The notes under the pieces: model-generated
What the model saw: the letters and a program-made list of their open reading frames with translations, nothing else
Told to the model about the DNA's origin: nothing
The model's database searches: none
Part shown: positions 17,845-60,044 of the stretch, in pieces
Layout: each line of letters opens with the position of its first letter
Position numbering within the stretch: position 1 is the first letter of the stretch
Made by a program: the position numbers and the translations under genes
Assembly (NCBI GenBank): GCA_030141605.1
Contig: JAQGDQ010000200.1
Location: forward strand, 248,001-312,000
DNA: 64,000 nucleotides
Reading direction: 5' to 3'
Origin: Tubiluchus corallicola
Taxonomy: Eukaryota; Animalia; Priapulida

Positions 17845-19850
17845 CGCTTGCTCTGCAGGACAAAGAAAAACGTTGACGTAAAAACTCCAACAGTAAACAG
17901 CATTTTCTTGATTCAGAGAAACTTTTCTTCAACACTAAACAGCATTGTCTTCACTCAAAACAAAAACTTTTCTCCTACATTATTTACTTACAGCAAGAAT
18001 TGACTTGATGTAGAAGAAAAAACTTTTATCCAACATTAAACAACAATGGCTTCATGCACAACAAAAAGAGATTTTTCCAACATTAACATCATTGCCTTCA
18101 TGAAAAGAAAAAACTTTTTCCTGCATTAAACAGCATTGTCTTCGTGCAACACCAGGAAATTTTGATGCACAACTGCGTGGTAATTTGTGGACTGTTACTC
18201 CAAATATTTTAGATGTTCGATCAAGAATTTAGATTGTAAACCGAAAATCAAAATTCGCTGGTTTAAATCTAGGCTTATCGCCTCGACTCTCACATTTTTC
18301 ACATTTCCCTTCTTTGGTCAAAATTGATTTTAAAAGTTCAATAATTGTGAGTTAATTTCATTATCAAAATGCAGTAATGGTACAGAATGTAACAAGATAC
18401 CTGATGCCTATAAGAGAAATAAAAACGTGCTGTATTGCGCGTAGATTGCAAGGCTTTCGAATTGTGTAAAAATGGCGTACATACCTCTCAAAATCTAAAT
18501 CTTTTTCTGTGAGTACGTTCTTGCTTTGAGCACCATTCATTAGCTTTAATCGGGTGCCTTTATGCGACCGTGGCACCTGGTATCCTTGGACGAAATGCGT
18601 CATTAAAGGGGGTAAAGATCCATGACTCTTGACATAATAGTAAAAGTTTTATAATCTCTATTGTCACTTTTCCGGCCTCATTTTGTCTCCAGCTTGATGA
18701 CGTCAGTAATTGGTGTTTCTACAATTTCGATTAGGCCAGTACCGTTTACAAAAGTTTTTGGGAGCATTTGGGGCCATCAACATATAACGCCAATTTCGAA
18801 GACCTACCAACCTTGCGTTATAATGGCGTTATCTCATCTCCTGTCACCTACCTACCATAAACTTGACATCGTTTTGTGTGGATGACGCGTTTATGCATAT
18901 ATCGAAAAACGAAGTTAGTCGCTAGTTACTAGTAAGTAATTTATTTCACTAAATGTACAACAGTACAAAACATACATAACGCAAAAATATAATTAAAAAT
19001 GAAGTAATTGATGAGATATACAATTTCAGTGTACGTTTAGCCATTATCGCTTATGAAACTATGAGCCTGTAAAAATGTGAAAAGAGGGGCTAAAAAGTAT
19101 GGTGCAGAGAGGAGTTTTTGTCTCAATTTTTTTCTCTGACTACTTTCTAGGTTTTTCTTGTCGGTAGTACAATAACAACTATGTAAGAACTATGTACCGC
19201 TCCGTAATTTTATGTGTCAACATTGTAATTTGCAAAATGTGCGTTCATTAATTGTCATGTCATACATATCAGTGCCTTTATGTATACAAAAATATTGCAC
19301 CAAGCCTTGCTGAATGTTGCATAATTATGTTTTTAATAATTATAAAGGCAGTGAGTACAATAAACGTGTATTGTATAGATATTTCATTATTATGCATGTA
19401 TATTATATCATTCACGTGACCATTGGTGCCCGGAAAAAACGCCCGAATTGTAGTAAAAAAATCTAGAATTAAGAAATTTATATATAACTTAAATATAATT
19501 TATGTAAAAAAATCTAAATCTACCTATAGCCAGAAAAGTATAAATATTGAGGGATCGTCAGAGGGCCGTAGACGTCGTACATATATATATATATATATAT
19601 ACATGTAAAATTTTTTGATAAATTACAGCTTTATCATCAGTGTAACCTAGTTTCCAAGAAAAAGCAAGCAAACAACAGCCATCTTCTCTTCCCCTTGCCC
19701 GCTCCGCCGTACAAGCCTTTGTAGACTCTGCTCTTACTGAGTAATTTGTTCTGGTATGCATAAAGATCCCACTAATACACTCCATTACCATAAAATAAAA
19801 TGCTATTATATGTACTTTTGCATGTAAAACTGTGTAATCATTTAAAGTTT

Positions 19851-20300
19851 CTACTTTTTCTTCCCTGACGCAGATGAGCCAAGCGGATCACTCAGACTGA
19901 ATGAACCGTCTACGGCAACTGCTGCTGCAGTAAAAAATACTGGTTGTTCAGTAACTGGCTGAGTCTTTTCCACGAATCCAGGTATGCCATCAGTGCTGAC
20001 ATCACCGTTTATGTGAAATTGGATGTTGACCGTTGGCGGGCAATTGGCTGATGATGATTGTCGCCGCTCCGTTTCAAGCCTTAGAAGGGCAACTTGTCGC
20101 TGCAGTAGACTAATAAGTTGTTGTTGACTCTCTTGTACTTCATGACACTGCTGTGGAGCTGGTTGATTTTGTCTGTATTGCAGTTGTGATCTAAAGCTAT
20201 TACCAGGTTGAGGATTAGAAGTTCCACTGCCGCCTGATGTAAGCAAAAAGACATTACTGCCAATGAGTAGGTGCAGCAGAGCGAGTATCCAAATTTTCAT
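19851..20300 (-). CDS. Secreted DP-motif family member 6 (149 aa)
   Basis: Signal MKIWILALLHLLIGSNVFLLTSG; Gln-rich, coiled-coil-like middle; NCPPTVNIQFHINGD; DGSFSLSDPLGSSASGKKK*. Acceptor aatttcag lies 10 nt before the ATG, with a candidate donor near 20649. Confidence 0.8.
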   Translation of the reverse strand: MKIWILALLHLLIGSNVFLLTSGGSGTSNPQPGNSFRSQLQYRQNQPAPQQCHEVQESQQQLISLLQRQVALLRLETERRQSSSANCPPTVNIQFHINGDVSTDGIPGFVEKTQPVTEQPVFFTAAAVAVDGSFSLSDPLGSSASGKKK

Positions 20301-21828
20301 TGTGAAAATCCTGAAATTTATGATTCATTAGTTACAGCCAAGTTTCTGCAACATTTGAACACATTCACGATATATTCAAATTTAATCCGAAATGAAATTG
20401 GTAACGGCAGCGGCTACAACTTTTAGCCTTTCTAAACATTGCGCTGAAGGTTTCTATTTTAATAAATTCATTTTAATAATAATAACCCTTTAATGAAAAG
20501 GGTTAAAAGAAGATTGGCGTTCACTTATATAACAGAACGCCTAAAATAAGACCACATTGGAGTTTTCTCTGACAGTTAAAAGATCTAACTGTAGCGCAAA
20601 AGAAGTACATTGTTTAGGTCTGAAGTACCAATTGTCTCTACGTACTTACCTTTGTTTTTAATACTAAACCTCAATTTTTCCTTTCAGTAATTACAATTAT
20701 TGAACGTTGCACAAAAATTACCAATATTACGTATCACACGTTTAAAAAACATGAGCGGTTTAAATTCACATCGAAAAGTTGGAAGCTGGAAAGTTCTGAA
20801 CTATACCTAAACTTGTATTTGTATGCATATTAACCAATGCATGCACATTACTTGCTATTAATTTACTGCCATATTGTATTGTTAACTTACTGTTTTTCTA
20901 GATCTCCTTTTTTGAGCGTTTTAAGTTGCAACTGTAGTGTCACAGCAGTTGTAATGATTCACATTTTACTGTTAGTGGTCCTTTCTGGAAAAGGATGTCC
21001 AACCATTTCTAGCGCGACTAATGGCACGTTGTTTTGAAGAGTCCCAGCGGGATCTACTTCATTGAAAGAAAACGGCATGACCTTCAATACCAGGCGTTAA
21101 AATCCTTCAATTAGGAGACGGGAAATAGGGAAATTGAGAAAATAAAGACATGATCATGGTCAAGCCAAATTTATTGTTATCACTAAAGGATACATTAAAA
21201 TACCACGCAGAAGACTATGAGTTATAATAAGTACTTAACTAAGCACGTAATTATTGCAAAGTGTACTAGCTCAATTTACATACTTTTCTTCTAAATAAGC
21301 ACCTATGGCTAAGTTCTAGGCTAAGATGTACATTTTCGATATTCGATGCGTTATAACTCGGAAAGCTGCGTGTTCTTTTCTTATCAACATCTGTCTTGAA
21401 ATTTAACATCGTTCCTGATTTTAAAAGTGATGTTTTTTTGCCTTTGAACCCTGTTCCTTTCCATCGGGGATGCAGACTGGGACTGGATGCAGAATGAGTC
21501 AGCAACTGAAACTTACTTAATTGGTAGCTAAATAAAGCGCTAAAGTGTAAATCAGTAATACGTCTCCAAATCGCATTATGAAAACAATAGTATAACAATA
21601 GCATAGTAAAGAATATCTGTTACCGAGAAGAAATGTATAAAAAGATCATCTATATGTGAACAGAAGCTATTTACAGCAGAGCTATAATTCATGTCTACAG
21701 AATTAATATCAATGTTGTCATTGCAGCTGAGGCGTGGTATTCTCCCGTGCTTCCAGACTGACGTAAAGTGAGCTCGTGTAAACACAAACTCATACACATG
21801 TATTTCTACAAGATTAAAATGACTTTTT

Positions 21829-22380
21829 TCATTTTTTGCCGCTTTCAATACGCAACTGGTCTGCAGCAGGATCTGCTAAGTTGAATGTACCTGCTGCAAA
21901 ACTGTCTACCGGTGGTTCTGGTAACTGTCCCCCTTTAACATCTCCATTCACATGGAATACTATATTAATGGTGTTAGAGCCGCAAGATGGCGACTGCTGT
22001 GTAGGCTGCAACTCCAGAAACTGTATAGGCTGCTGTTGTTGTTGTTGACGCCCTAGCTGCTGCTGTCGTAGTTCCAACAGTGACGGCGACGGTTGTGATT
22101 GCTTAAACTGCTGGTTCTGCAGTTGCGCTGCCTGTGGCGTCAAGCTTTGCAGTAGCTGTAGCTGTTGTTGAGTAGGATTGAACGGTATGGATTGTGGCTG
22201 TAGCCGTATGATGGTTTGCTGTGGTTGCTGCGGTGTTTGTTGGTGCTGCTCTTGCATTCTTGGCGGTGATTGGCTTCGTTGTTGTGGTTGGGTTTCAGCA
22301 CTTGGGGACTCCGCTGCTGGAAAACACTGGACGTTACCAACAAAGAGCAGACTAACTAGCATCAGCATCCAAGCCTTCAT
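21829..22380 (-). CDS. Secreted DP-motif family member 7 (183 aa, poly-Gln rich)
   Basis: The true ATG is at 22380 (MKAWMLMLVSLLFVGNVQC), after acceptor gtttgaacag; long Q/P-rich linker; SCGSNTINIVFHVNGD; AGTFNLADPAADQLRIESGKK*. Confidence 0.85.
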   Translation of the reverse strand: MKAWMLMLVSLLFVGNVQCFPAAESPSAETQPQQRSQSPPRMQEQHQQTPQQPQQTIIRLQPQSIPFNPTQQQLQLLQSLTPQAAQLQNQQFKQSQPSPSLLELRQQQLGRQQQQQQPIQFLELQPTQQSPSCGSNTINIVFHVNGDVKGGQLPEPPVDSFAAGTFNLADPAADQLRIESGKK

Positions 22381-25300
22381 TTTGTTAACCTGTTCAAACA
22401 CGAATTGCTGAGTAAAATCTGTTGGGGTTCAAATAAATAGCACGAACAATTTAATTAATATATCTATGTTATTATTATTATAATTACTATGATTATAAAC
22501 GTTCGTTTTCATTTAATGAATATTTTACAACAGTTTTTCAGTGCACTTTTTATTAAGAAGGCGCCGTGGGATGATAAGATGTTCATAGAATTTGTTCGGA
22601 TTGTACGTGATATAGGTATAGAATTTCAGTACGCGACTCTAGAATTTTACGAAAGTTTTTAGTTTGATTACAAAAATAAAATAATGTAGCTTTGCGTTGA
22701 ACGTGCTTTAATCATTTGTTATTCATCGTAATTACAGGTTTACAATTACAAGCAAATATACATTTAGTCGCACAATATATTCATGTGTCACCAAATAAAA
22801 CACAAAACAGTTTTAGCTACAACCACCACTTATTGTTTATATGTCAAAAATATTCATTAAAAACCTGAAAAAATGTAATTTAATTTCAATTTTATAATAA
22901 TTTAAATTTGTCACGTAAGACATTGGACAAAATCCATATTGGATCAAAACGACGTAAGTCACAGTTGATATTAGACTTAAAACATGTACCTACCTGTTAG
23001 CTAATCCTGGTTTCACAGAGTTCAGACAGAAATAATGTTGCTTGCTTTCGCAAAACATTTGGTATGTCCAAAAAACATAAAGTCTTGTGACATTCTCTTA
23101 CCGGATCTAATAATGTCCATTCACAGCAAGACACTAGGTACACCACAATGACAACCAGAGACTCCACTATATAATTAAGGTTTATGGCGTCTTCCAAGTA
23201 ATTAAGAACATCTTCGCAGATTTTTTATGACTGTACTTAAAAACGTGTTTACCGATTGACAAACATTTAGGTTTTCACTGTTGCCGTCTAAGGACTTTAT
23301 TTTTCTTTGAACGATTCCATGTAACCAAACTGAAGTGCTAAGCCTGCAAATGATCTAGTGTACCTCTATTTCTGCATAAGATTTCTCAGCTTGGGGATTT
23401 AGGATCTAACTCCGTTTTTATGATGCTACCAAAATACCAATTTAATAATTTATTAACAAAGTTTATCTTATCTTAATCCAACAAATGGAAAAAAATCGCA
23501 GTCTTATCTAAACCTAGGCTTTTGTGACTTGGAAATGCTGACCTAATTAATGAAACTAAGCACCAAAGTTTAAAAGCCAACAGTTGGTGATTTTAATTTA
23601 ATTTTTTACGCGAATAAACTTTCGATACTTCATAAAAAAAAATCATAGATATTGTACACGTATTAATTTTTGAAAAAGCCAGTCCCAAGAATGTTAAAAT
23701 GCACAAATCAGCCTTAAGAATAATAAAATGTGCAAACCAGCTCTAAAAATGATATAATGCTCTCAAGCATGTACTTGACTACCAAACAGGCTGAAAAAAC
23801 TACTCAAGTACTGCAAATAGGAAAAAATTAAATACTCCCACAATTAAATTTAACGTCTAATATAATATAAGCTATTTGTTAAATCGTTCAAATAATTCAA
23901 GCAACGTTATAACCACTCACTTTATTATCCGTCTAAATTCTTTTAGATTCCACAGAGAATTTCGTCTATGCAACGAAAGAGTCAGACATTCTTCTTTTCA
24001 AAGTTTTCCAAACAAATCGTTTAGTTTTGAGACATTTATACGTGAACCATAACGTTGAGCCCTAAAAGGCTAGCAAATGGCGAACATAGAATTGTATTAC
24101 TACCTATACTTACTTACTTACTTACTATATAAATTTTTATACATGCATATGTAATTATACTGTTAGCAAATTTTTTTTATTTGTTACAAGCGGAGTACAA
24201 CCCTGTTACATTAAACCTATGTACAAGCCTAACTTGACCGATATTTTTGCAACATCTTCCATATACTTCCATCAGGTTCTTCAACCAGCGCCATCCTTTC
24301 CAACAAACGCTCTGCGTGACATCTTTAAGTTACGCAAGTCAGTGTGACAATGATGATTAGGGTTTGATTAACTTTCACTAAGCAACATTTAGTATTGCTG
24401 CTAGTTCGTCTCATAATTACTTCGCGTTTGACACTCTTAACATAAACTTAAATTTCACTTCACTTGTGGCGTGTAAGAACTTTAGCACACCTGTTATTAG
24501 TTATTAATTTCTCTTTAATTAAACATTACATCGTTTGTGTCCCGTGCTTATTTCTCCTTCATTATAAACAATTTTTCATCTCATTTCCTCATTCTTAGGC
24601 TTGTCATAACATTGAAATAACTTAAACTTCCCTCTTGGCTTTCTGCACTTATTTGCTTCTGAATGTTCTTTTTATATTAGTAGTGTTCTAGTTTTCTGTA
24701 TTTAAGCTGTGTGAGAGAGGTCTACCTTGAACGTTTAGACCTGTAACTAAAGCCAGGGTAATTGTTTCGCTGTGTTTTAGTATAGTTTCATAATATAATT
24801 ACTCGTGACTTGTTAATATTAATGTTATTTGATTCAGTGATTGAACAGACATGTGATTTTTTCTTCGGTGAAAGTTTTATGGTTTTTACCTTTTTGATTT
24901 GAAGAGTTGTTTAATTTTAATATATGGACAACGTGATTATTAACTTTATTTTCTTTGTTTTCATTTTCATGCAGTTAATGCCAGCGATAATTCATGATTC
25001 AACATAAAAACTGCAACTCTACAGGACCTGGAAGTAAACCATAATATAGTTCAGTCATTCAGTGTTCATTAAAAGTTAACAGGCTTAATAACTGTGGGCA
25101 AGTGTTATCTTGGTGCTTGCTCTCCCCCTGAAGTTGTTTCGATGACTTCAGATCCTGCAAATTCATTAGGATATCACAAAACAGTAACAATACCTAACCC
25201 TTGCCCACAGGATACACATCATCGCTAAGGATTAATCACGCATTTTTGTTTCTATGTTGGTCCTTTGTGCAGTTATATGTATCAAAGCATTGCCTTCTTT

Positions 25301-25872: not shown

Positions 25873-27064
<1,192 letters not shown>

Positions 27065-28552: not shown

Positions 28553-28762
28553 GACCAAAGTACTATAGCACTTTAGCAATAAGGATTGCTCCGTGAGCGT
28601 GTTAGTACTGCAGTCAAGTTCGTGGTAAGCGCAGAGATTCTGTTACTTTTTATTTATTATTTCTATGTCTGTAAATGCTTGATTTATTCTTGCATAGCTC
28701 TTTATTAGTCTTGGCGTTTTTTTGTTTTACATTCTTGACGTATGCTTCTTAGTTTCAGAAAA

Positions 28763-29860
28763 ATGGAATTGCGAGTTGTGTTTGCATTTCTCCTTCTGGT
28801 AGCGTCTGTGGGTGCAAGCCGACGCGGCAGTGGCAGCGGCTACGGTTATGGCTTCAGACGGGGATCTGGTTCTGGACGGGGATATTACCGCAGACCAGCC
28901 GCTCGCGACACACCTCAACCGGTTGTTCAACAACCGGTTGTTCAGCCAGTTGTACAACCGACGGTTGTTAAACCGGTTGTTATCCACACCAGCACTCCAA
29001 CACGGTATGGACAGGCCAGTTATGGAAGGCAGGGTGGTTCCGGGTATAGAATGCCTGGGCAATCCGGCTATGGTTATGGGCAGTCTGGCTACGGTCGCGG
29101 GCAAGCTGGCTATGGTTATGGACAGTCTGGCTACGGTCACGGGCAAGCTGGCTATGGTTATGGACAGTCTGGCTATGGTCACGGGCAAGCTGGCTATGGT
29201 TATGGACAGTCTGGCTATGGTCAAGGGCAAGCAGCTGGCTATGGTTATGGACAGTCTGGCTACGGTCATGGGCAGCCTGGCTATGGTTATGGACAGACTG
29301 GTACTGGTTACGGGCAAGCTGGCTATGGTTATGGACAGGCAGGTACTGGTTACGGGCAAGCTGGCTATGGTTATGGACAGGCCGGTACTGGCGAGCAAGC
29401 TGGCTATGGTTATGGACAAGCAGGTACTAGTTACGGGCAAGCTGACTATGGTTATGGACAGAATTCCAATTATGGGCGAGGTGGATATGGTCAGTCTGGC
29501 TATGGTTATGGTCAACCTGGCTATGGACGTGGCGGATACAATGCTGCAGGTTATTCAAACAGTGGATCACAACAATACCAACAACAGGGAGCTTCCAATT
29601 ATGGTTATGACCAGCGGCAAGGCTATGGACAATCCGGTGGATATGGTTACTCCAATCGAGAATCATCTGGCTACGGATACCAGCACGAACCGGGACGCTC
29701 TACTGGTTATGGCTACCAGGATAATGCATCTTCTGGTCATGGACATGGCCAACAGCATGGCTATGACGAAGCGACCGGATATGGAAACCAACGGTATGGA
29801 GCTTCTGGAAGTCAGCAGTATGCTGCCGCCGGTTACGGAAGGCAAGGCTATTACAACTAG
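28763..29860 (+). CDS. Secreted Gly/Tyr/Gln-rich repetitive structural protein (365 aa)
   Basis: Signal [18 protein letters not shown]; PVVQ repeats; about nine 14-aa (42-bp) [14 protein letters not shown]-type repeats; ends [15 protein letters not shown] near 29947. Confidence 0.85.
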
Positions 29861-33362: not shown

Positions 33363-34331
33363 TTAACGTCCGTATCCGCTGCTTCTACCACCTCCATACC
33401 CTCCTCCGCTGATGGTTCTCTGCTGTTGGACCACTCTTGTGGATCGAGCTCTTGCTGGAAGGGTATTAGCAGGTCCAGAATGCACTGGAAGTGACTCAAG
33501 CTGGACAGCCTGGAACTGTAGATTGGGTGTCCTCTGATAACCGTAAGCCGCTCCTTGTTCGGTTTTGCCTTCTCCGGAGGCCGTTTGTGTGTACTGTTGT
33601 GTGGCGTCCTGGCTGGCTTCACGGGAAGCAGCAAGTTGAATTCCTGCCTCGCCCGTTCCGGAACCTTCTCGGACCTGTTCGCTCTTTTCGTTCTGGCGAG
33701 CGAATCCGGACCGGAATCTGGTGCCGATAACGACTTGCTCAGTTTGTGCTGCAGTGCGGGCTTCTCGAGGTGCCAGTTCGTTGGCTTCGTTCCTGAACTG
33801 GTTGAAGTCAAAACCTTCAACATTGATGTAGTTGTTGCCAAAGTTGTCAAAACCAAAGGCTTGTGCATCAATGTTACCAAAGTTGTTGGGGTCAATGTTG
33901 CCATTGCCACCAAAACCTTGCAAGCCTGCTGAAGCGAACTGAGAAGCGGCAGAAGAGCCACCAAAAGACCTTGATGAACTAGTGCCAAATGAGCGCCCTC
34001 CACCAAATGATCGTCCACCACCAAATGATCGTCCACCACTAAATGAACGGCCACCTCCGAAAGTTCCACCAAATGACTGACCTCGACTAACGGGTGCGAC
34101 GCTCTGAACGAACCTCTGCTGCTGCTGTTGAAAGCCCCCACGGTTCTGGAAGCCACCTCGGAGTTGAGCTCCACCAAATCCTACTTGATTGCCGTGTCCG
34201 CCTCCACCGCGAAATTGCTGACCACATCCTCCTCGTCCACAGCCACCTTGAGAACCACCGCACCCTCCTTGTCCGCAGCAAATGGCACTGCCAAGACAGG
34301 CCAATAGAATGGAAATGACGATAACTTTCAT
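33363..34331 (-). CDS. Secreted Gly-rich protein A (322 aa) with a novel C-terminal domain
   Basis: ATG at 34331 follows acceptor tttttacag|a; signal MKVIVISILLACLGSAIC; CGxxGG repeats; GGGRSF repeats; ~150-aa domain shared with 39825-40703. Donor near 35255 and TATATAAA at 35335-35342. Confidence 0.85.
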   Translation of the reverse strand: MKVIVISILLACLGSAICCGQGGCGGSQGGCGRGGCGQQFRGGGGHGNQVGFGGAQLRGGFQNRGGFQQQQQRFVQSVAPVSRGQSFGGTFGGGRSFSGGRSFGGGRSFGGGRSFGTSSSRSFGGSSAASQFASAGLQGFGGNGNIDPNNFGNIDAQAFGFDNFGNNYINVEGFDFNQFRNEANELAPREARTAAQTEQVVIGTRFRSGFARQNEKSEQVREGSGTGEAGIQLAASREASQDATQQYTQTASGEGKTEQGAAYGYQRTPNLQFQAVQLESLPVHSGPANTLPARARSTRVVQQQRTISGGGYGGGRSSGYGR

Positions 34332-35334
34332 TCTGTAAAAAAAACAAAGTAAATGTAAAATAAAAAATTTCGGCTCGTAGACCTGAATATTCACTCAAAA
34401 ATTGATGATGTACTAGAGACTTCAATGATGTACAACACTCAATATTTAGAACAAAGTCGATGATGCCCACTTGATGACTTAAACGACTTGAACGCAACAT
34501 GATGCTTTATGACAGTAACTCACAAGTAATACGCTACAAGTAAGCTTTTTGAAAGAATCTGGACCTGTGGTTATTAGGCAGTATAATTTCACTTTTCACT
34601 CATTCTGTTCTCGGCCGATTTTGTAAAACTGCACTAACTGCAGAGTTTTTAGTAAAATAGCATTTTTGTGCCCCAGTGTTGAATAAACAACAAGACAAGC
34701 CGATTCAGCAACTAGGATAAGGTTCATTTTTTTGGATGATTTTTGCCCTGTTGCCTTATAATTTCTGCTGACAATGTCACTAACGAAAAGACAAAAAATG
34801 TGGCGCAACTGATTATTTATTTTAATTTTGCACTGACGTTTCTTTACGTGTGTTGACCCCAATATGATTTCTTATTGAGCTAATTAAATAACTCAGTTAT
34901 TATCAAAGAGCATTAATAAAAATACTTTGAGTTTTCACTCAAATCCATCACAAGCATTGCTAAAAATGATAATACCAAGATTTCATTATGCTATAGCATT
35001 CTTTGTAATTTTACCTACATGAATGTGCAGCAACCGTTCGCTCATTTTGCACAAAATAAAATAAATGTGCAGCAAATTAAACACTAACATTTCTGTAAAA
35101 AAGAAAATCTGATATTGTTTCGTTGTCGACACTTTTTAGCTAATGCGATAAAGACTCGTATTATACTGAATATTAGTTGCAAATTTTTATTTGAGAAAGT
35201 GGTAATATGAACTAAGCACTTAAGTCAAACTATCGTACAAATTTATTTATCTTACCTCTCTGACAGGCGCAGTTTCTTATTGGACTAGTCTTGCACAGTT
35301 AAGCAATTGGCAAAGATGTTTGGCTTTGATTGAA

Positions 35335-39824: not shown

Positions 39825-40703
39825 TTACTGAGGCAGGAGATTGCGAGGACCAGAATGAACCGGAAGTGGTTCGACTCTAACTGGCTGATAGGCGACTCTG
39901 GGATTGCCCGACAACTGGTAGGTTGCTCCCTGCTCAGTTTTGCCTTCTCCGCTAGCTTGCTGCGTGTACGCTTGTGTGGCGTCCTGAGTAGCTGATCTAC
40001 TGGCCGTGAGTTCAATTCCGGCAGTTCCGCTTCCGCTTCCTTGTCTGTTGGCAGAGCTGGACTCCGACTGGCGGGCAAATCCGGAACTGTACTTGCTGCC
40101 GATAACCACTTGCTCGTCAAGTCCGGCATTGACTGCTTCTCGGGGAGCATTGGCGGCTGCATTGTTCCTCCAGGTGTTGAAGTCGAAAGCATCAAGAGCG
40201 ACATAGGCTCTGCCAAAGTTGTCAAAACCAAAAGCGCTGGCATCGATGTTAGCAAAGTTGTCAATGCTAAAGGTTCCTTGTCCAACGAATCTGTTTCCTC
40301 CAGTAACAACTACTGGACTCGTTCGCGCAACTGTAGCAGCTCCACTGTCAATGACACGTATGCCACTAAGACCGCCGCCAGTTGTAACAAACCTTCTGCC
40401 TCCTCCGCCAAGGAACTGCAGGCCACTTCTGCCGATTCCACTGCCTCCACCAGAGATGAATCGCGTGCCAGTTCCACCAAATCCACCAAATCTGCCTCCA
40501 CCAGAAATGAATCGCGTGCCAGTTCCGCCATACCTGCCTGCACCTGAGATGAATCGCGTGCCAATGCCGCCAGTCCTGCCTCCACCGTAGATGCCTCTGC
40601 CAGACCTATACGTTCTCAAGCCCAATATACCGCCTTCTCCACGGGCATCGCAAAGAACGCCGACAACACAACCCAGGAACACGAACGCAATGAGCTGGCG
40701 CAT
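39825..40703 (-). CDS. Secreted Gly-rich protein B (292 aa), paralog of protein A
   Basis: Signal MRQLIAFVFLGCVVGVLC; three GTRFISGGG-type repeats; shared domain NFANIDASAFGFDNFG..FDFN.WRN...APREA...EQVVIG...SGFARQ.E...GSG.G.AGI.L.ASR.A.QDATQ.YTQ.ASGEGKTEQGA.Y...LPVHSGP. Acceptor 1 nt before the ATG; donor near 41701; TATAAAA at 41779-41785. Confidence 0.85.
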   Translation of the reverse strand: MRQLIAFVFLGCVVGVLCDARGEGGILGLRTYRSGRGIYGGGRTGGIGTRFISGAGRYGGTGTRFISGGGRFGGFGGTGTRFISGGGSGIGRSGLQFLGGGGRRFVTTGGGLSGIRVIDSGAATVARTSPVVVTGGNRFVGQGTFSIDNFANIDASAFGFDNFGRAYVALDAFDFNTWRNNAAANAPREAVNAGLDEQVVIGSKYSSGFARQSESSSANRQGSGSGTAGIELTASRSATQDATQAYTQQASGEGKTEQGATYQLSGNPRVAYQPVRVEPLPVHSGPRNLLPQ

Positions 40704-40799
40704 CCTGTATAATTACCAATAAAATCATTTTCTCTCTTTTTAAAATTACACTAGTGGAAGACAACTTTAATAAACTTTGTATATATATATATATATATA

Positions 40800-48265: not shown

Positions 48266-51200
48266 CTAAGAATAGTGTTGATTTATGGCTCTACCAATCA
48301 CTAGCCTTCTTACTTCACTTGTTCCAGCCCCAATTTCATAGAGTTTAGCATCACGCACAAGTCGTCCAGTTGGATAATCATTGATGTAGCCATTACCACC
48401 TGAAATAGGACAAGACAATTGGTTTAAAACGGTCTAATATTATATAATAATTATTGCACAACATTCAAACAAGCATATTAATGCAGCAAGCTTATTATTG
48501 TTAACATCTTCAGAAAAAACTTCACAATTGTTCAGGTTTATTTCTGATACATACACTAAGTTTTTTTTAACACTGTTGACATAGTGTAGTACCAAACTTA
48601 GACAAACAAACTGTTTTTACAAGTTAGTACATTTAAGGTGATATTGCTAATGCCAAATTTGAAATCTATGAGCATTTAGGTTAAATTCATAGGGATGTGT
48701 TATAGTGTTTCAATGCATAATTCAATTGAGCTACATATGTCATTCAGTAAGATTGGTTTTTAATTTTGCATAGCATAGACTATATGAGACGAGTTTATTC
48801 CTACAGATATGATTCACTTATCCGATTTCATTTCGTCAAATTTGACTGCACAGACATGTGCTAGCTAGCGCATAACTAACAAGCACAATTAAAACAAGAT
48901 GTCTACATCGAGTTAGTTTCGACAACAGCGATGTACTAACTGGCACTAACAATTTTCTCATAAAAATTGGTTAGTAATCTAGGTGTAAAACAGGCAAGGA
49001 TCAAATGACTAGAAAGCATAGCTTACACTGTAAGAAGATAGAACTGATACTATAATTTTGTAGTTACACAGTTAACTAACATACACTGGCAATACTGATA
49101 CAAAAATGAATATAATATCTCTACCTAAAGCCTGCAAAGCTTGCAAGCAAACTTGTGTAGCTGCTTCTGCGGCATAGAGTATAACTCCAGCACAATCTTT
49201 GTTATTTATATGACCTTTATCAGCTGCTCGTGCAACATTATAGACGTACGACCGTGTAGCATTTAAGGTCGTATACATGTCCGCCATTTTTCCCTGCATC
49301 AACTGTAACACAAGTGACTTGAAAAAATTTACAACAGAAAATACAAGTCTATTTTACATTTGTAAGGCAATGCTTCACTAAATGGTTTATTGTGTAACAG
49401 ATTTTTTTATTTATACTTTGGCGGGAAAGCTGAAGTTCTAGTGCATCAATAGTAATACAGTAGTCGCCGCTTAATAGACTCGCGGTTGATAGACTCAATC
49501 GCCTAATTGACTCAAAAACGCCTGGAACGGGCCACTTCTATTCAAATACACGTAAAAACTATTGGCAAGTGACTCAAATAACTTTGCTTAATTGACAATA
49601 TTATTCCTTCACGTACTTAAAATAAGACATTTGTATGTGCCCAAACAGCCTTTCTTACTTTTATGTCATCTTTACTTCCCTTTTGTGCATTACATATGTA
49701 GAAACAATCATGTTAAGTGCCATTTTGTTTGTAAACAGGTACGTTTATCATGCGCTAATATTCTACCATAGCAGTTTTGCTTTAAATCTGTTACCCGTTT
49801 GCCCACTGCAATTAACCTTGTTACTCGGCACCACCAACTGCAGATCAAGCATGCCAAGTGCTAAATGTTTTACACACACGAGAACTTTGTGAGTGAACTT
49901 CTTCGAGAGAAAATGAAGCAGCCAACTTTGAAGGAATTTTTGTAATTTTTGCAAATAAACAGACTTGTGTGATTTAGAAAAATATACCTTTTAATTTATT
50001 ATTAATTCACTTCCCGTATTTTCCCGTGTATAAGAGACCCTTTTTTGCTCAGAATTTTCACTTTAAAAATAGGGGGTCTCTTATACATGGGAGTAAGTCT
50101 TTTCAATAAGATGCATAAATTGTGGCACTAATGATTTTAAAGAAATAAGTGCTCTACAACTGTTTTGCGTGTGGCGTTCGACTATGAAGCGGTTGTAAGC
50201 AATACAGGCATCGTGACACAGGCATTATCTCCTCGTTTTCTCTTTTCCTGTTACAGGTTTGCAGGTACGCACTTTAATATATACCAGTACTCTTTTTCTA
50301 CAACACATTAACTGGTTTTATTTTGTTTTCAGTACCGCACTGAGTTGAAAAAAGTTGTACTTTACCCTCTAAAAATGTCCGTCTGAAAAAACTTTTTTCC
50401 AGAATTTTTGCCTAAAAATTGAAGGGGTCTCTTATACACAAGGGTCTCTTATACACGGGAAAATACGGTATATAAATTAATATTTTAAAATATTTTTTCT
50501 AATCTTTAACCGCACAAAGAAATTTAGGCATTACTCGTTTCTAAAATGATTAAAAACCTTTGCAGTGCATAGTAAGCTGATGACTCATACTTCTATAACA
50601 GTAATACAACAATCACTGGTTAATAGGTTCAATCAGTTAATTGGGTCACAACACGTCAGTCCCAAAGTGAGTCTATTAAGTGGCGCCTACTGTACTATAA
50701 TACAGCAAGTGTTGCTGTCAGTAATTTATAAAGAATATATATCATAAAAAATCCTAGTAAACATGCTAAACATACTAGGTAAAGTACATTTATTGTCACA
50801 GCTTAATTTTCTGATATATTTGAATTGTATTTTGAAATACAGATGGCAGCTGAAAAGAGTTACCTGAAAAGTGCCAATTTTTTGACCAAATTGTTCCCTC
50901 TGATGGCAGTATTCAAAAGCGACATCACAAGCAGCTTGCATTAAACTGAAGAAAAAAATAACAGCATTTTTTTTCAAAATTTCATATCTAGCTAGTATGG
51001 CAGCATTAAAGCAAAGCAATCAAATTCAATATAATTTTAAGCTCCAGAAAATACATGTATCAGCCTGGGTTCAAAATCTGATTTTTAGATAATACTACAC
51101 AAACTAAGGGTGTAGACTACATCTCTATCTCTCGTACAATACTAAGGACTTAATAACCGCTGTTAGTTTGTACAGTTCCTCTAAGACTGATCTGAGAGAA

Positions 51201-54200
51201 TACACCTGTTAACCAGAAAACAAAAATATTATTAGAGCTTGACTGTTATAAATCAATAAGCAATTTTTACCCTATCGGTCCAGCAGATAAGACTAGCCGC
51301 TCTATATCCAGTCCAGTCATCAAAACATACACTCCTTTATTTGTTGGTCCGAGCAACTGAGATGCTAGAATTTGAATACATTTGTATTCGTATTCAACTT
51401 TTTAGAGATGTTAGTAATTTTATCTTTGCATATAATACAAAATGGTTAGTTCCAAGATGTTATACAAGAAATGCAACTTCACCTGCAAAAATTATGCCAA
51501 AAAATTCAATAAAAAGATTAAAGTTTCCCAAATCACATTTCCACACAGCATTGCGGTTAGATAAAATTCCATTAATCAGGTGCTGGTAGTACTGAAACTT
51601 TAAAATCCAATGTCTAATGCTACTGACATAACAAAAAATTGTTACTGTCTCTATCTACATGCGTAACCAACATATTTTTTACTATTTTTTTAGTCTACAG
51701 AAAAAATGTTGGAGGAGTGGAAAAACCATTACGAAATGACTCAATCCAATTTGAAAATCTCACCTACCTTGTGTGCTCTCTTTCTACACCAGTTGCCGAC
51801 ACTAATCCTATGTACCGTTTTTTGCTTATCTATCTTATTCTTTCAGAATTTCGTGGATTTAAACTGCCACAAAACACGTTTTCTTTGCTTTTCCCTAATT
51901 TGTATGCTTAAAGTTATGGAATACAAAACTACTTACGTCACGATGGTAGCTGCAAAGCACGCATAGTTACACTGCCTATTGTACGTCCATACTTTCAAAT
52001 ATAATTTAAAAACTCCTTGACTCCAGGAAATAACCAATCAAGCATAAAACAAAAAATGAAAGGAAAAAATATAAAAGCCACAAATCAGTACCTGTTTTGC
52101 ACTTTTAAATGTATCTGCATCAAGGAGTCACACCACTGGCTAAATTAGAAACCTCATCTAACATTCAGGATACAAATATTTTATACTAATACTCTTTCAC
52201 AATATGTTACGCGTAAACTTGTTACTATCCATTTTATTCAGAACAGTTAGCTGAAAATGAGACCCATTATATCATTACAAACATTAGACAGTTCTATACA
52301 TACACCTACACACATTTAAAGTCTTCAAAGCGTTTAAACTCAACACTATGAATGTCAAACCTACCCGACACACCCAGACGCTCCCAAGCCACGCTCCAAA
52401 TCTAGTCCTGACATAAGTATGTACACGCCCTTTCCCACTCCTCCAACTAGATTGGCAGCTATTTGCAATCCATGCAACAATAACAATTATTAGTATGGTT
52501 ATAAAGTTCAATGAGGAAAACAGATATTAAATAGTAAATAATATGTGTGCACATGCAAAGCCAGTCATATATTGAGTCATAAAAAATCATAAAAATTCAA
52601 AGCATCAAAATTTTTTTCAGTTAATTTATGTGGGAAGTAATTGGTTATTAAAACAATCAGTATTTAATACTTTTTGCAACAACAGGTGACAGAGTGTCAT
52701 GCAACAGCTATCTGCAGCAAGTTTTATGAATGCAAAGTTTTAAATGCTTTTTAGAAAGGTTAGGAAATCTAACCACAGTGATGCAAAAAATATGATTTAA
52801 GCTAGCTGCCGGAATGATCCAGTGACTATTTTGAACATAGATGTACATCACTTTTTTTGCAATTTCACTTTAGCTAAATGGTGAAACTATCAATTGTTCT
52901 GAAAACTGAAAGCACTTATTTAATCACATAATTTAAAACAACTGGCAATTTTTTTGTCTTACCTGGAACTTTACAATCTTCAAAAATTAATTCTCCAGTT
53001 GGAGACCCTCGCATTCCAAGTTTATCAAGCTTCTTTCCGATGCTAAAACCTTCAAAATCCTGCAGTGTATTAAACACAGTGCTTTTATTAAATGTGCTCA
53101 TTTAATTGCTCATGCGAAAAACACTCGAATTAAGTGTGCCAAAGTTACTCTCCCACCCAAAGCCACAGCTAAATATCAATACTAGGGATGGGACAAAAGT
53201 TTGCTACACAGGCAATTCGGGTTCCCAATTCAAAGCGTAGCTTCGATTCGGATCCGACCCAGTTTTACTTTACCTATTTCGGGCCTGATTTTGGTTCAGT
53301 AAAAAAAGGGCAAAACAGTCTTCCTAATTCGTGTTTACTTAGTTTAGGAGCAAATCCGTTGCCAACTAGTAAAATTTACGTAATTTCCCTTTTTACTGAT
53401 TAAGTCTCTAATAAAGGTTATATTTACGATGCGTTCCTCACCATGTTGACACCTTTAATGTAACTGCAAAGTTCTGTAAAAGTTGTGATCTATGGCAAAA
53501 ACTAAATCTGGACTAAGAAACTTGACTGTGTTTAGAAAGACCATCAAAACATCCAATACAACAAATCCTAATGTTGCAGTAATCCTAAGATGAAAAGCCT
53601 AACTGGCATTAATTAACAAGAAATGGCTATTGAAAATTGAAAGCAAATATAAGATTCAGAATCGGTTCGCTTTTAGAAACTGGAAAGATGTGAGATTCAG
53701 ATTAGCTTCAGCTTTGGAAAATCAAGTTTCGTCCCACCCCTAAACAATACCAGAACACTTTTCATTAAATAACAATGTTTTTCTCAACTCCTGTTGGATA
53801 AAGCCAAATACAAGATATTTTCTTAACAAATCAAAAAACATTCTGCTTTTGCTTTACAAATCACAGATCGCTTAATGTCTTCTAAATGTGAAAGTAGACT
53901 TACGCTATTTTGGAAAATGGCACAATTTATAAAATTGTATTTTCTTAAAAGCAAACGGGTGCCTTCAGGAAAAAGGCCATTCCCTAAATTTGCTACTTTA
54001 GATGTAGATTAAGTTAAAGTTAAATATAAGCATCAGGGCCTCCAATCCCAAAAATTCAGGACCCTTCCTGTGCCTTTTTCTTGGTGAAAGTGGGGATTGG
54101 AAATCTCAATCCCGGATAGTTCTGGATTTTTGGAATTGGCAATTGGTTAGTTGGGACTGGTGATTTTATTATTCAGAAGCTATATTCGGTTTATTCATTA

Positions 54201-57200
54201 TTTCCTCTCAAAACAAGTAATTACTGCTTCCAAATAAAACAAAAAAGTTACTAATGAAACTCAGGATATTTTACTTGATGTATAATTATGAACAGCTAAT
54301 TAGCAACGTGCATTAAAACAGCATGAGAACAGTAATCTTCACTGGAATCAAATCCTAAAAATCTGAAGATTAGAAAATGAAATTCCAAAATAAGTGGATT
54401 ACAAAATATCTCAGGACTGGAAAAACCTAATAGCAATAAAGAAACTGACATGAAGCTATTTTAAAACCAAAACTAGATATTAATATTTATATGGTCAAGT
54501 ATACCTTTTCTACAATAAATGTGCTAATTCCATGTGCAGGAGTATCAGCATGCGGATCCGTTCTAGCATAAACTATTAACACATCGGCAATAGGACCATT
54601 AGTAATCCAGAACTTGCTCCCATTAAGCACATAATAGTCACCTATAGTGAGCAAGGGTATTTTTATTAATTCAATTTGGTATAAGTGGTAAAAGAGTTAG
54701 TACATTTTAAAAATGTGGAAGGGGAATAGGATTATAGTCATTCTCTGTGCTTTGCTATCAAGTTAAGCCACATCAGGCTCAATTAGTAAATGACAGGGTG
54801 ATAATCAGAAAACTAGTTTTTGGCAGTTTTATTTGATAAAAATTAATTTTTTATAATCACCAGTCCATTTACAAAGGCAGGCTCTGTTTTATTTAACTGC
54901 TCTGAGCACATGTCATGACAACCGGCTTCTATTACTTCACTGATAATTTTGGCAGATGGCGATTTTAACATATTTTAACAGGTGACAAAGGACAGAAAAC
55001 AGTGTAAAATGTTATACTATTCAAAACATCTACAAAACTACGGCAACTAAAAGACAGCATTATAAGCTCATGCCTCATTTAATCAATTGGTATCTTGATT
55101 GTTTACTTAGATACAGATACCAACCATTAACTTCTAATTTCTGCATCACCTTTTTTCTCAGCCTTTAGCTTCATGCTGACTACATCTGAACCAGAAGTGT
55201 GTTCACTCATGGCTAGTGCTCCAATGTGCTCACCATTTATTAACTAAAATTTAGAAAACGGGAAGTTTTAATAAACGGAATATAAAGAACTTTCAGTAAT
55301 TCTAATGCAGGTAAATGTTTGACATATTAACTAACCGCAGTACAAAAGGATTGGGATAGTAATAAGGTTTACAATTTCTTGTGTGAGAGAGAAAAACCCG
55401 AGTCTCGTTTCATCTAAGTGTATCAGGCAGTTTTGTATTGACTGTTTTATTGTGCATAGAATAAAGGCATTTTTTAAAATTACAATGTAGCATAACCCCT
55501 GTACCTAAGCTAACTTTCATACTATTTGGTACCTTTGGCAAATACTTTTCTTTTTGCGCATCACTCCCATGCCGTCTCAGTTGATTAACACACAAATTAG
55601 AATGAGCTCCATAACTCAGAGCAATGCCACCATGTCCACGTGACATCTCTTCCATGACTAAACAATGATCCACGTAGGAACCTTCTGACCCACCATATTC
55701 ACCTAGGTATATTAACCAGCTAGCAGTATAATATAATCCACTGTTTAATGTTTATGTAGCTGGTTCATGAGATTACACAGAAGAATAAAATATATACCAC
55801 CAGCCAAATTGTAAAGGTAGTTGGAATACCGCTTTAATAAAATACAATATTTACACAGAAATTGTCTTCATAAGGTGCTAAATTAAAAAAGCTAGGATTT
55901 AGCTTGTTTTTAAAATTGCTGCTGTTTTTTGTAATTTAAACTTAGTATTTCGTAAAATTTTTACACTATCCTGCACTATGTCTTAGAAGTCTGCTTGTAA
56001 ATTTAATTTAACTTTATTTTATATCGAAACAAAGTGCTATTCTCCAGCTAACTGTATAGTTTGGCTGGTTGTGCATACATCATTCTAAGTTGAGCATATT
56101 ATTCGATAACTACCCACTGATGCTAAAAACATTTTAAAGTAATAAGGCCATAGTATAATATTAGTGATTAAATTAAAATTAATGGGTCACTTAAAAAAGT
56201 TTAGTTCCAACCAGATAAACCATCATCAAGCCAACTAGGCAACATTACAAATTTTAATGAATCTTCCAAATTTAAAACCATATGTAAGTATTTCAGTAGC
56301 TCAGAAGCTTAGAAACAAGAATTATGAGTGCTTACTTTCTGCAGTAATGCCTAGCAGTCCCAGGTTTCCCAGTTTTTTCCAGAATTCCTTTATCTCAGGA
56401 AAACTGTCATTTTTATCTATTTCATCTGCTTTTGGTGCCAATTCATTTTGGACAAAGTTAAAAACAGTTTGGCGCAACTGAAAATAAAAAATAAAGCTGC
56501 TATAAAATATAAAATGTGAAATATGCCTGTACAGATTTTCACTGTTAATGCACTAATACTACAATAACACTTTTTACAATATGCTGAAAGCTTTGTTGTG
56601 TAACACATTGCTGTTAGATGAAAATTATATGCAATGAGATTGGCTAGTAAGCAACAAATGTGTGCTTGCAAACCAAAACCATCGTTAAGTTGGCATAGTT
56701 AAAACTACGGTCTGATGCTTCAAAGTAGAATGCACCAAAATTTTGGTCTAATGTTATTTTTTGTTTTTTTATAAAAACAAGTGCTAAATATATTGGACTT
56801 TTACATTCTAGCATCAAATTATCAAGAAAATGTCCAACAAATACCAAGAATTTAATTTTATAAACCCGTGCCCATTTCTCTGCCTAGAAACATGTACAGC
56901 AATTGCAAAGCCCAAATCTTTGTCAGGAAGAGCCGTCTACTGGATTTAAACATAACTTCAATGTGCTCTTGCAAAGTCCATAGTACCACACTTTTGTAGA
57001 GACGCGTCTAAATACAATGGCTGTCTGTAAAAGTGATTTTCTCAAGATTATGTTTCTCACTGCATAGCCTGCACCTCAACTTCAACGTGGATTATCTCAG
57101 CTTAGTATCAAAATGTTCCTCATGAAATAGAGATTGAGAGTACGTGAATAACTAGAAAACATTAATTGCTGACTTATGGATGATTTTGCTATACAAGCAC

Positions 57201-57659
57201 ACAAATAATAAATGAGATTCAACGTGTACTGACGTTTTTAATTATTATTATTACATAAACAAAGACAACGGATGGTGGCAGTACGCTTAACAACTCAATT
57301 CGTGACCTGTCTCTAGTGTCCTACTTGGGCAGCCCATATACGACGCGTCCTACTTGGGCTAGCCCGTGCACGACGCGTCCTACTTCGGCTAGCCCATGTA
57401 CGCCAATTGTCCTACTTCGGCTAGTGGGTTACTCGGCGCCCTACACAGCGCTCTCCACCAAACTGGTAGCCTAGGCTTATCAAACCACAAAATAAAAAAA
57501 CAGGCAAAATACTTGGTGTTGTTCTTCTGTGAGTCCAAACAAAGTATCGTCGACAGGAAATGTAGAAGCTGGTCGTGCAGCTGCATTTACAGGTCTTGAT
57601 CTCAGCAAGAGAGCTGAAATTTTTCTAGAACTAAAAGATCTAAACAGTTTAGCAGCCAT
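48266..57659 (-). CDS. IVD: Isovaleryl-CoA dehydrogenase, mitochondrial (424 aa)
   Basis: Exons 57513-57659, 56336-56477, 55533-55702, 55150-55243, 54505-54641, 52963-53059, [52365-52458 or 51271-51364], 50864-50945, 49125-49302 and 48266-48399. All are GT-AG and phase-compatible (1275 nt). The N-terminus is transit-peptide-like ([13 protein letters not shown]), followed by [71 protein letters not shown] and [30 protein letters not shown] (IVD-type GAG). Confidence 0.95.
49458..50692. mobile_element. Non-autonomous Tc1/mariner-pogo-type TIR element in an IVD intron
   Basis: TIRs cagtagtcgccgcttaatagactc / gagtctattaagtggcgcctactg, each flanked by TA. Confidence 0.8.
50014..50468. mobile_element. 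MITE (Tc1/mariner-like) nested in the previous element
   Basis: 27-bp TIRs ccgtattttcccgtgtataagagaccc / gggtctcttatacacgggaaaatacgg, TA on the right flank, and internal copies of ggggtctcttataca. Confidence 0.8.
51271..51364 (-). CDS. IVD: IVD alternative exon 7B (94 nt, canonical-type)
   Basis: aattctag|CA TCT CAG...ATA GG|gtaaaa encodes (A)[31 protein letters not shown]; same length and phases as 7A. Confidence 0.9.
51708..51725 (-). promoter_or_regulatory. Intronic element complementary to the 5' part of IVD exon 7A
   Basis: In the pre-mRNA, UUUUUCCACUCCUCCAAC can pair with exon 7A GUUGGAGGAGUGGGAAAG (52447-52430): 16 Watson-Crick plus 2 G-U pairs, no gaps. Confidence 0.6.
52365..52458 (-). 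CDS. IVD: IVD alternative exon 7A (94 nt)
   Basis: gcaaatag|CT GCC AAT...GTC GG|gtaggt encodes (A)[31 protein letters not shown]; phase 1 in, phase 2 out. Confidence 0.85.
53183..53742. mobile_element. Non-autonomous hAT-like element
   Basis: TIRs tagggatgggac / gtcccaccccta; 8-bp target-site duplication atcaatac / aacaatac (one mismatch). Confidence 0.75.
57318..57425. repeat. ~30-bp minisatellite, about 3.5 copies, in IVD intron 1
   Basis: Unit gtcctactt(g/c)ggctagcccatgtacgacgc repeated with variants. Confidence 0.85.
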
Positions 57660-59207
57660 GATCTTGCTATCTTTGCTCCAAACTTGATTGTGCGAAAAAT
57701 CCTAAAGATTCCTCATATTGTGTACACTGCTTGGCGCGTGTTCATGGTCAAAATTTCAATAATTTTCCATGCATAATGTGAAAAAGATAAGAAATCATGA
57801 AAAATGCAATGCAAATTTGTTTGAAATTATTTACTTTTGTGCTGCAAATGATATAGCCGAATTCAAATTATTTTAAAATATCTGTTATTATTTGTCCAGT
57901 TATTTTAAAAGAGAATTTCGTGCAGAACAGCTTCTGACTCTAGTTCTATCACAGTGCTCAGGTATTACTGTTTTACCTTTACATAGGTTGTTGGCTTATG
58001 TCCGCTTACAGATGTTATATTCTCTGGTTTACTGCATTAAATTTTACTAGTTTATTCATCCACGCAATTTTTTCAACGAATTCGTAACCATTGACATTGT
58101 ATGCGATGCTAATGTTTGTATGTATGTAAAGCCACCATAAGAAACACCGGAACAACACGAACTTAGCCGAAATAAACTTATTCAAAACAGTACAGAAGTT
58201 TTATAGTAGCAGACTCATCAGCTTAAGGCGATAACGTTATAGCTGATTCCAACAGAGAAGCCCTTAGGCTAACAGTAAAATAATAATGCTTTCGTCACAT
58301 AGGATGTGACAGAGGGTGCACAATTGAAGCCATAGTCCTCTTATATATACTTGCCATTTCCATAATATATTCTAATTCAATTCATTTCAATTTTATTTGT
58401 ACAAATACTGAGTCAATATGTTGCTGTACACATTAAATAAGTCTTATAATTATCATCGGAATAGAAAAATTACAAATGTTGAAATTTGACCGTGTATTTG
58501 GACATTGTAGGTTCCTGAAATCAAAATGTACATGGGCAAAAAATGTAAACTACAAGTTAGATAAACTTTGAATTTGAAGAATGGCTTTTCTCTTTCTGAC
58601 ACATGCAGTACTAAACAAGGGAGGAAAGCCACGTGGATGTATTATCGCTAAATACTCTAGACAATGTAACTTTGACTGTCTGATTTTTTTCTCGACAGTA
58701 TTTGATTCAGAGAACCAGGATGTTTTTATAATAGGGAATCAATCTGTACTGCTTTGTACTCATTTATGCAAAATATCATGCAAGGTCAAGTGTGATCAAA
58801 CGTTTAATCAAGCGTGTCAGTTACATCATAGTACGTATGGCCAACTCATTAGGCAATACTCATAAATTGAATCAGCACTGATATACATAATAATCCTACT
58901 GTTCAAAGTGTGACTCATTCATCAGAAATACCATGCAAGTTCAGTGTTTATTCAAATGTGTCTGTTATGCCATAGTACTTATGGCCAACTCACTAAAGGA
59001 GAATCCATCAATTGAACAGTGGTGACATGCATAATATTCTTACCATTCAAGAAGGATTTTTCTTAGTAATCCTAATTTGCGATACATTTACTGAAAACAT
59101 GCTAGAAATGAGCAGTTTACATTACTGTCACAATTTACGTATTAATATTTTATATAAAACGTGTTGATGTAGACTTACATGATTTGAAATGCTTTACAGC
59201 TCTGAAG

Positions 59208-60044
59208 ATGGATATAGATACTCAAGGGTCTGGAGACCACGATGGGAATATTTTGCTGGTCAAATTAGACAATGCCAGAACAATGGCTAACATTCTCAAA
59301 GGCATACATTTTAAAGAGACAGCAACTATTTTTGCAAGCGACAATGGCCTGAAAGTTACTGTCGAAGATGCAAAGTGTGTGCAGGCAAATGCGTTTTTGC
59401 AAGCTGCTTTGTTTAATGATTATGTGATCAGGCAGGAAACAGTCAGCTTCAAATTTAACTTGACAATCTTGTTAGAGTGCTTGAATATTTTTGGTTCAAG
59501 TGTGATACCTGGTGTTACCACTGCGTTAAAGATGACTTATTCTGGTTACGGGGCACCGCTTGTTTTGTTACTTGAAGAGGGTGGAGTCATTACTGATTGC
59601 AGAATTAAGACACTAGAGCCTGATGATGTTTTAGATTTTGACTTCTGTAGTGACAATGTTGTTAACAAAATAATAATGAAATCTGAGTGCATTAAAGAAG
59701 CATTTTCTGAACTAGACATGACCAGTGATGTTCTAGAGATTTTGATGTCACCAGATGCTCCATTCCTCCGTTTTTCCACGTTTGGCAATGGAGGAAGTGC
59801 ACATGCTGATTATCCACGAGATTCTGACATGGTTGAGGTTTTTCAGTGTGCTCAAACAACGACAAATAGATACAAAATTTCTTTGCTAAAGCCATCAGTA
59901 AAAGCATTAACTTTGTCTACAAAGATCTCACTGAGGACTGATTTACGTGGCTTCCTTTCATTACAGTATATGATAAAAACAGAAGACGGGCAGATATGTT
60001 TTTTAGAGTATTTTTGTGCTCCTGATGAAGAAGTCGAAGGTTAA
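59208..60044 (+). CDS. RAD1: Cell cycle checkpoint protein RAD1 (9-1-1 clamp subunit), 278 aa, intronless CDS
   Basis: LDNARTMANILKGIHF, GLKVTVEDAKCVQANAFLQ, LLECLNIFG, GYGAPL.LLLEEGGV.TDC.IKT, EAFSELDM, SP.APF.RFSTFG.GG, YKISLLKPS.KAL.LSTK.SLRTD.RGFLSLQYMI, F.EYFC.PD. Acceptor gctttacag at 59199 precedes the ATG. Confidence 0.93.
   Translation: MDIDTQGSGDHDGNILLVKLDNARTMANILKGIHFKETATIFASDNGLKVTVEDAKCVQANAFLQAALFNDYVIRQETVSFKFNLTILLECLNIFGSSVIPGVTTALKMTYSGYGAPLVLLLEEGGVITDCRIKTLEPDDVLDFDFCSDNVVNKIIMKSECIKEAFSELDMTSDVLEILMSPDAPFLRFSTFGNGGSAHADYPRDSDMVEVFQCAQTTTNRYKISLLKPSVKALTLSTKISLRTDLRGFLSLQYMIKTEDGQICFLEYFCAPDEEVEG

Follow-up and report, generated by a model that had tools for sequence, protein, structure and literature searches.

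Equal-size isoforms made from a duplicated exon have been described for a flavoenzyme of related chemistry, the peroxisomal acyl-CoA oxidase 1 (ACOX1), in which the alternative exon 3 gives ACOX1a and ACOX1b. According to the accessible text of PMC11178532, these isoforms are tissue-specific, have optima at C10 versus C16/C24 and differ in their use of dicarboxylyl-CoAs, and the accessible part of a human tandem-exon catalogue (PMC8373072) lists ACOX1, dated to Chordata, with no matches for isovaleryl-CoA dehydrogenase (IVD). Here we describe a 64,000-nucleotide stretch of the priapulid Tubiluchus corallicola (contig JAQGDQ010000200.1, positions 248,001 to 312,000; hereafter the window), the minus strand of which contains a complete gene of the leucine-catabolic enzyme IVD with two versions of one internal exon, the variant 7A and the canonical 7B. 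By analogy, ACOX1a/b is the closest precedent, although it concerns another gene, another organelle and another exon, while the swapped IVD exon carries the catalytic base and its array spans protostomes and amphioxus. Exchanging the exon with the catalytic base would take the principle of ACOX1a/b a step further. The explanation that accounts best for the results, and which we consider probable, is that splicing of one exon at a time yields a canonical IVD and a deeper-pocket enzyme for longer or bulkier acyl-CoAs.

No description of an IVD exon switch was found in the searched literature, the coverage of which leaves out most subscription journals. RefSeq entries of molluscs, Lingula, Tubulanus, Watersipora and Priapulus called 'IVD-like isoform X1/X2(/X3)' represent the same exon pair, but they stem from automatic annotation, are named as IVD-like isoforms only and have gone unremarked there. 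The apparent absence of the pair from humans and arthropods may be why the switch was overlooked. If the reading is true, a hidden member of the animal acyl-CoA dehydrogenase set is made by splicing and not by gene duplication.

Two versions of the catalytic exon

With GT/AG sites imposed as a constraint, a single gene model fits the locus, consisting of 10 coding exons and encoding 424 amino acid (AA) residues with either alternative exon. As an earlier note on this DNA had described, 7A and 7B are homologous 94-nt exons of equal phase, preceded by AG, followed by GT and free of stops, and the coordinates and translations given there were reproduced. Their strong divergence was likewise borne out (48/94 nt and 14/30 AA residues identical). 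The 7A/7B pair is old and constrained, because second codon positions are mostly equal (24/30) and third positions mostly not (9/30). A recent duplication or an assembly artefact is ruled out by the 48/94 identity and by contigs of run X1 that match both exons with their flanks; DNA-type contigs of this run, which may be the assembly's own source, span 7A without difference. A profile search of the window with the exon returned exactly two copies (E 1e-15 and 3.6e-19) and a next match at E 6, with no third copy in the 64 kb. Inclusion of both exons leads to a stop after residue 302 and omission of both to a stop after residue 263, in agreement with the expected break of frame, and these stops are both located far upstream of the last exon junction; transcripts with both exons would be cleared by nonsense-mediated decay. 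The protein without the alternative exon groups with Priapulus caudatus in quick trees (SH-like approximate likelihood ratio test, 99).

Concerning the junctions predicted for exclusive use, 52963>51364 and 51271>50945 are joined in one contig of run X2 (with 94 nt on the side of the former and 22 nt on the short side of the latter), so that 7B is included and 7A skipped; 52963>52458 and 52365>50945 were not seen. Further evidence came from other animals. A search with 7A retrieved the Mytilus galloprovincialis 'IVD-like isoform X2', which is identical in 26/30 residues, at the upper end of the 48–89% observed for the constitutive exons. Sequence searches and cluster look-ups gave 15 RefSeq isoform pairs of equal length, which represent 13 species in five phyla, namely two Mytilus, two Haliotis, Ruditapes, four oysters, Tubulanus (Nemertea), Lingula (Brachiopoda), Watersipora (Bryozoa) and Priapulus. 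The two isoforms of each pair differ, in all 15 cases, only from −21 to +9 relative to the catalytic Glu, i.e. within the alternative exon. Single use of each exon in orthologues is evidenced by these pairs and by open reading frames (ORFs) in Logan contigs, of which P0058 and P0060 are canonical and P0059 is variant. P0059 (259 AA residues on a 1084-nt contig) reads through the variant exon and both neighbours, and a spliced oyster transcript is therefore implied. Gene models of Branchiostoma lanceolatum and the sea slug Plakobranchus hold both copies, with the variant first.

A degenerate pattern of the variant exon and its donor, run on metagenomes, matched five loci (L001–L005), each of which is an IVD gene with introns, its variant exons being 94 nt long and flanked by AG and GT. 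L002 and L004 are 99.6% alike, belong to one animal that is bryozoan-like on the tree, and show the order variant, 47-nt intron (L002:2752-2798), canonical; L005 has two variants followed by a canonical copy. L001 and L003 are short loci with the variant exon only, which shows 0/94 differences between them, compared to 64/937 in the flanking introns. Counterparts of 7A are thus neither absent nor degenerate in relatives, and the proposal of tandem duplication with mutually exclusive use is supported by the 7B-only contig, the isoform pairs of the 13 other species and the intact variant exons at 5/5 metagenome loci. We conclude that 7A and 7B are almost certainly a real mutually exclusive pair. 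Judged by sequence, conservation of the pair extends over six phyla of animals, represented by molluscs, brachiopods, ribbon worms, bryozoans, priapulids and, within the chordates, amphioxus.

Pocket floor and predicted substrates

In human IVD, L127 and L290 (95 and 258 in the mature protein) make up a barrier at the pocket's base, where medium-chain acyl-CoA dehydrogenase (MCAD) has T121 and V284, G406/A407 provide space for the branch, and M280, D284 and R287 contact CoA, as stated in the available text of Ju et al. (PMC12369846). The human numbering of Glu254, Leu256 and Leu258 used in the earlier note was confirmed on 1ivh_A, on which the exon corresponds to residues 234-263. Residues were tabulated for 13 pairs including that of the window, whereas the near-copies from M. 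edulis, C. angulata and C. virginica and additional exon versions of oysters were excluded. The catalytic Glu254 is kept in 7A and 7B, as had been claimed, and in both exons of all 13 pairs; Gly238, Gly243, Leu247, Gly250, Leu251, Asp252, Arg255 and Gly261 are also invariant in the 26 exons. Position 258 is Leu in 13/13 canonical exons and Gly (11) or Ala (2) in the variants, 12 of which have Leu at 257. Of the three changes originally singled out in 7A, only that at 258 marks every variant, whereas 256 is variable in canonical and variant exons alike and 7/13 variants have Pro262>Cys. The latter alone can be regarded as a natural variant, because a bacterial IVD-like group (P0009-P0012, P0028, P0033) combines Cys262 with Leu258.

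By far the best structural relatives of the variant isoform are human and bacterial IVDs (1ivh, 8sgr, 9jq3-5, 4kto, 4o5m; E 1e-189), and the N, M and C domains of acyl-CoA dehydrogenases were found, with IVD as the nearest solved structure, for the Mytilus isoforms and the window exons. Like these structures, the variant keeps Glu254, Leu95, Leu370, Gly374 and Ala375; unlike the human and two bacterial structures, which have Leu258, it has Gly or Ala at 258, usually Leu257, and a small residue at 256. Leu95, Leu370, Gly374 and Ala375 are retained in both isoforms, and both have the catalytic Glu254 on helix G with Gly374/Ala375 in place of the MCAD-type base. The closure of the pocket floor by Leu95 and Leu258 is present in 7B and missing in 7A (Gly258). 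As Leu95, Gly374, Ala375, Glu254, Asp252 and Arg255 are retained while residue 258 shrinks, the variant would preserve the catalytic base, the contacts with CoA and the room for the branch, minus one wall of the floor. On these residues, the 7A product is an isoform of the IVD gene that should not be classed as a canonical IVD.

It is proposed that 7B gives the canonical isovaleryl-CoA dehydrogenase (Leu258) and 7A a second enzyme (Gly258) with a deeper pocket. Small residues widen such a cavity in long-chain acyl-CoA dehydrogenase, according to the accessible text of PMC11153573. The substrate range of the 7A isoform is probably shifted toward larger acyl-CoAs, and we infer that the variant is an active enzyme for longer or bulkier, presumably methyl-branched acyl-CoAs. 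Given that the floor is opened by 7A, with Leu95 and Gly374/Ala375 unchanged in the shared exons, the best substrates are probably methyl-branched chains a few carbons beyond isovaleryl-CoA, about C6-C10, which medium-chain dehydrogenase would use poorly if they carry the branch on the beta carbon. Remnants of bacterial iso and anteiso fatty acids are candidate substrates. Acyclic terpenoid acids are further candidates by analogy with the Pseudomonas citronellyl-CoA dehydrogenase AtuD, which dehydrogenates a 3-methyl-branched acyl-CoA of greater length, within a pathway that parallels the breakdown of leucine (accessible text of PMC4847356). This likeness is a functional analogy only, drawn by description and not by sequence, and AtuD differs in that bacteria encode it by a separate gene, which has a carboxylase of its own. 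Tentatively, and with more doubt than confidence, 7A may be regarded as encoding a hitherto undescribed animal dehydrogenase for longer beta-methyl-branched (isoprenoid or microbial branched-chain) acyl-CoAs, a counterpart of AtuD that arose by an active-site exon switch in the bilaterian ancestor, persisted in marine invertebrates and amphioxus for >550 million years, and was lost in vertebrates and arthropods. The pair is a natural system in which to test whether Leu258 (L290) limits the chain length of IVD, as has been proposed.

Further exon copies with Val or Ala at 258 occur in oysters (P0084, P0075/P0077/P0078) and at L005:1276-1369, and the arrays apparently hold three or four exon versions in oysters and three in L005. 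This growth of the array to at least three copies suggests that selection for diverse pockets is ongoing. Outside any exon array, two single IVD-like proteins (P0144 of Pyrocoelia pectoralis, and P0163) have Ala258, possibly the same pocket change reached via gene duplication or drift.

Exon choice, origin and alternative explanations

Among the 10 acceptors, the pyrimidine tract is weakest at that of 7A (7/17). A repeat scan revealed that 17 G+C-rich nt at the start of 7A (52447-52431) match 51724-51708; the resulting 17-bp duplex has −30.1 kcal/mol, compared to −19.7 ± 2.1 for intron shuffles (0/60 reach it) and to best duplex energies of −14 to −22 for eight other exons. With manually entered stacking energies, a helix scan ranked the 7A helix best in the whole 2-kb region (−33.5 kcal/mol, matched by 0/300 shuffles), and folding added three more nested helices from the 70-nt intronic element onto 52558-52529 (pair probabilities >0.9). 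In the Dscam-type mechanism, as outlined in the accessible text of PMC6071210, one docking site is complementary to a selector at each exon. No two-selector arrangement of this kind was found above chance here; the best helix touching 7B (−19.2) is inside the shuffle range, and only the predicted masking helix of 7A exceeds chance. From this modelling, chances are about even that 7B is the default and 7A is masked by a long-range RNA helix in this animal, a feature that would be specific to this window and that fits the sole contig seen (7B only). Steric exclusion is ruled out here by the 1000-nt intron separating 7A and 7B; it is plausible at L002/L004, with 47 nt between the exons, as a mechanism unlike that of the window. 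Helices flanking the exon A of L003 (the best reached by 2/100 shuffles) overlap a local repeat and were not counted.

Several observations weigh against the proposed switch between two enzymes. No 7A transcript was seen for this animal, run X2 having no contig on 7A and thus being uninformative either way; the 7B junctions come from a single contig of this one small run, which bears the same species label and is only guessed to be RNA, and 7/94 bases of 7B differ between contig and window. The RefSeq X isoforms are model predictions. The masking helix would account for silencing of 7A and not for skipping of 7B, 5/31 control windows hold a stronger helix (among them at least one element with terminal inverted repeats and one simple repeat), and no comparable exon-masking helix was found at L002 (76/100 shuffles as strong) or L005. 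Regarding the pocket, Ostrea isoform X3 has Val at 258, and an AlphaFold model of the Mytilus variant (16-sequence alignment) was not used, given a mean predicted local distance difference test score of 57.8, below 50 at 274-333 including the helix. The searches were seeded with variant sequences, by which other pair types are under-sampled, and the chordate side consists of one gene model. The best 120 of 3729 matches include only single exons of canonical type from cephalopods, Patella, Biomphalaria, Liolophura and Lineus, and only single copies from arthropods (with Ala258 only in a firefly protein), although absence from so limited a share of the matches is weak evidence. The exon tree does place 14 variants on one side of a branch (92/95), but it has 30 columns and the branch is not starred. 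The missing 7A junction, the weak pyrimidine tract and the predicted RNA masking would also suit a silent relic, i.e. a pseudo-exon. This is very improbable, as a dead exon could not keep 26/30 residues of the Mytilus isoform while its third codon positions are saturated with respect to the variant exons of other animals (9-10/30).

The apparently single copies also bear on the origin of the pair, as they would be expected if exons had been duplicated independently in several phyla and had converged on the small-residue motif. Convergent tandem exon duplication is reportedly common (accessible text of PMC9741552), the Branchiostoma copies share 22/30 residues and have their N-terminal half in common, and oysters and L005 show extra lineage-specific duplications. 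Variant exons are nevertheless alike across phyla even without the defining columns. Since the exons had been labelled by the motif around 257/258, the grouping was retested on residues 234-253 alone, and the observed labelling came out first among 1024 flips (11 species, without Ostrea and H. asinina) and first among 64 in each of two subsets of 7 species. Moreover, the variant is upstream wherever the order is visible (the window, L002/L004, L005 and two gene models), and the variants of Lingula and Branchiostoma end in the same eight residues. A convergent origin thus appears rather improbable and, were it so, would still strengthen the functional inference; a single ancient origin is likely. 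The simplest reading is a duplication likely before the protostome-deuterostome split, with likely loss in vertebrates and arthropods. A further alternative accepts the pair and its splicing, but has 7A tune the same reaction, through kinetics, stability, the tetramer or use in certain tissues or under hypoxia, or provide a weakly active damping subunit, with no new substrate. The exon also encodes the pre-helix loop and the CoA-contact residues 248 and 252, the extra glycines could loosen the helix, and exon pairs of this kind mostly retain their ligand-binding residues, as far as the accessible text of PMC9741552 goes. However, the sole position separating all 13 pairs is the pocket floor, always with the smaller side chain in the variant, Glu254, Arg255, Asp252 and Gly261 are unchanged in 13/13 variant exons, and third copies (L005 and an oyster fragment) likewise have Ala at 258. 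Tuning of the same reaction is therefore considered unlikely, and an altered pocket remains the preferred reading.

Feature coordinates and other reading frames

Table 1 Features of the IVD locus and of the short-ORF family, in window positions
Feature	Position	Strand	Remark
IVD coding exon 1	57513..57659	−	ATG; N-terminal leader
IVD exon 2	56336..56477	−	
IVD exon 3	55533..55702	−	Leu95, the other pocket-floor residue; common to both isoforms
IVD exon 4	55150..55243	−	
IVD exon 5	54505..54641	−	
IVD exon 6	52963..53059	−	Common upstream exon
Upstream intronic partner arms	52529..52558	−	70-100 nt before 7A acceptor; pair probabilities 0.92-0.94
Alternative exon 7A (variant)	52365..52458	−	Catalytic Glu254 codon 52396-52394; Gly258 pocket-floor codon 52384-52382
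Intronic element between 7A and 7B	51655..51724	−	Single-copy; predicted pairing with 7A start and upstream intron; X1 depth low
Alternative exon 7B (canonical)	51271..51364	−	Glu254 and Leu258; joined to both neighbours in one run X2 contig
IVD exon 8	50864..50945	−	Common downstream exon
IVD exon 9	49125..49302	−	
IVD exon 10 to stop	48266..48399	−	Gly374/Ala375 (room for beta-methyl branch)
Short-ORF family, examples	7328-7831, 13885-14331, 17473-17928, 19854-20324, 21832-22428, 25876-26280	−	

An intronless Rad1 (9-1-1 clamp) reading frame (59112-60044, plus strand; Pfam PF02144, E 2.9e-81) is arranged head-to-head with the IVD gene, ~1.5 kb from the IVD start codon. A ~460-bp element with terminal inverted repeats (50010-50469) is located in the intron that follows exon 8; its very high X1 contig depth indicates a repeated sequence resembling a miniature inverted-repeat transposable element, and a second high-copy repeat is located near 56650-57450.

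A tandem family of short ORFs extends over ~2800-26300 on the minus strand, with signal-peptide-like starts, Gln-rich middles and a shared motif Cys...N-I-V/I-F/L-N-I-N/D-G, ending near D-P-x-A; five members searched gave no Pfam match. Three secreted-looking ORFs rich in Gly/Tyr/Gln or Gly/Arg, at 28739-29857 (plus strand), 33366-34394 and 39828-40712 (both minus), also had no match in a Pfam search. The latter two have a common C-terminal domain, and all three are possibly cuticle or adhesive proteins.
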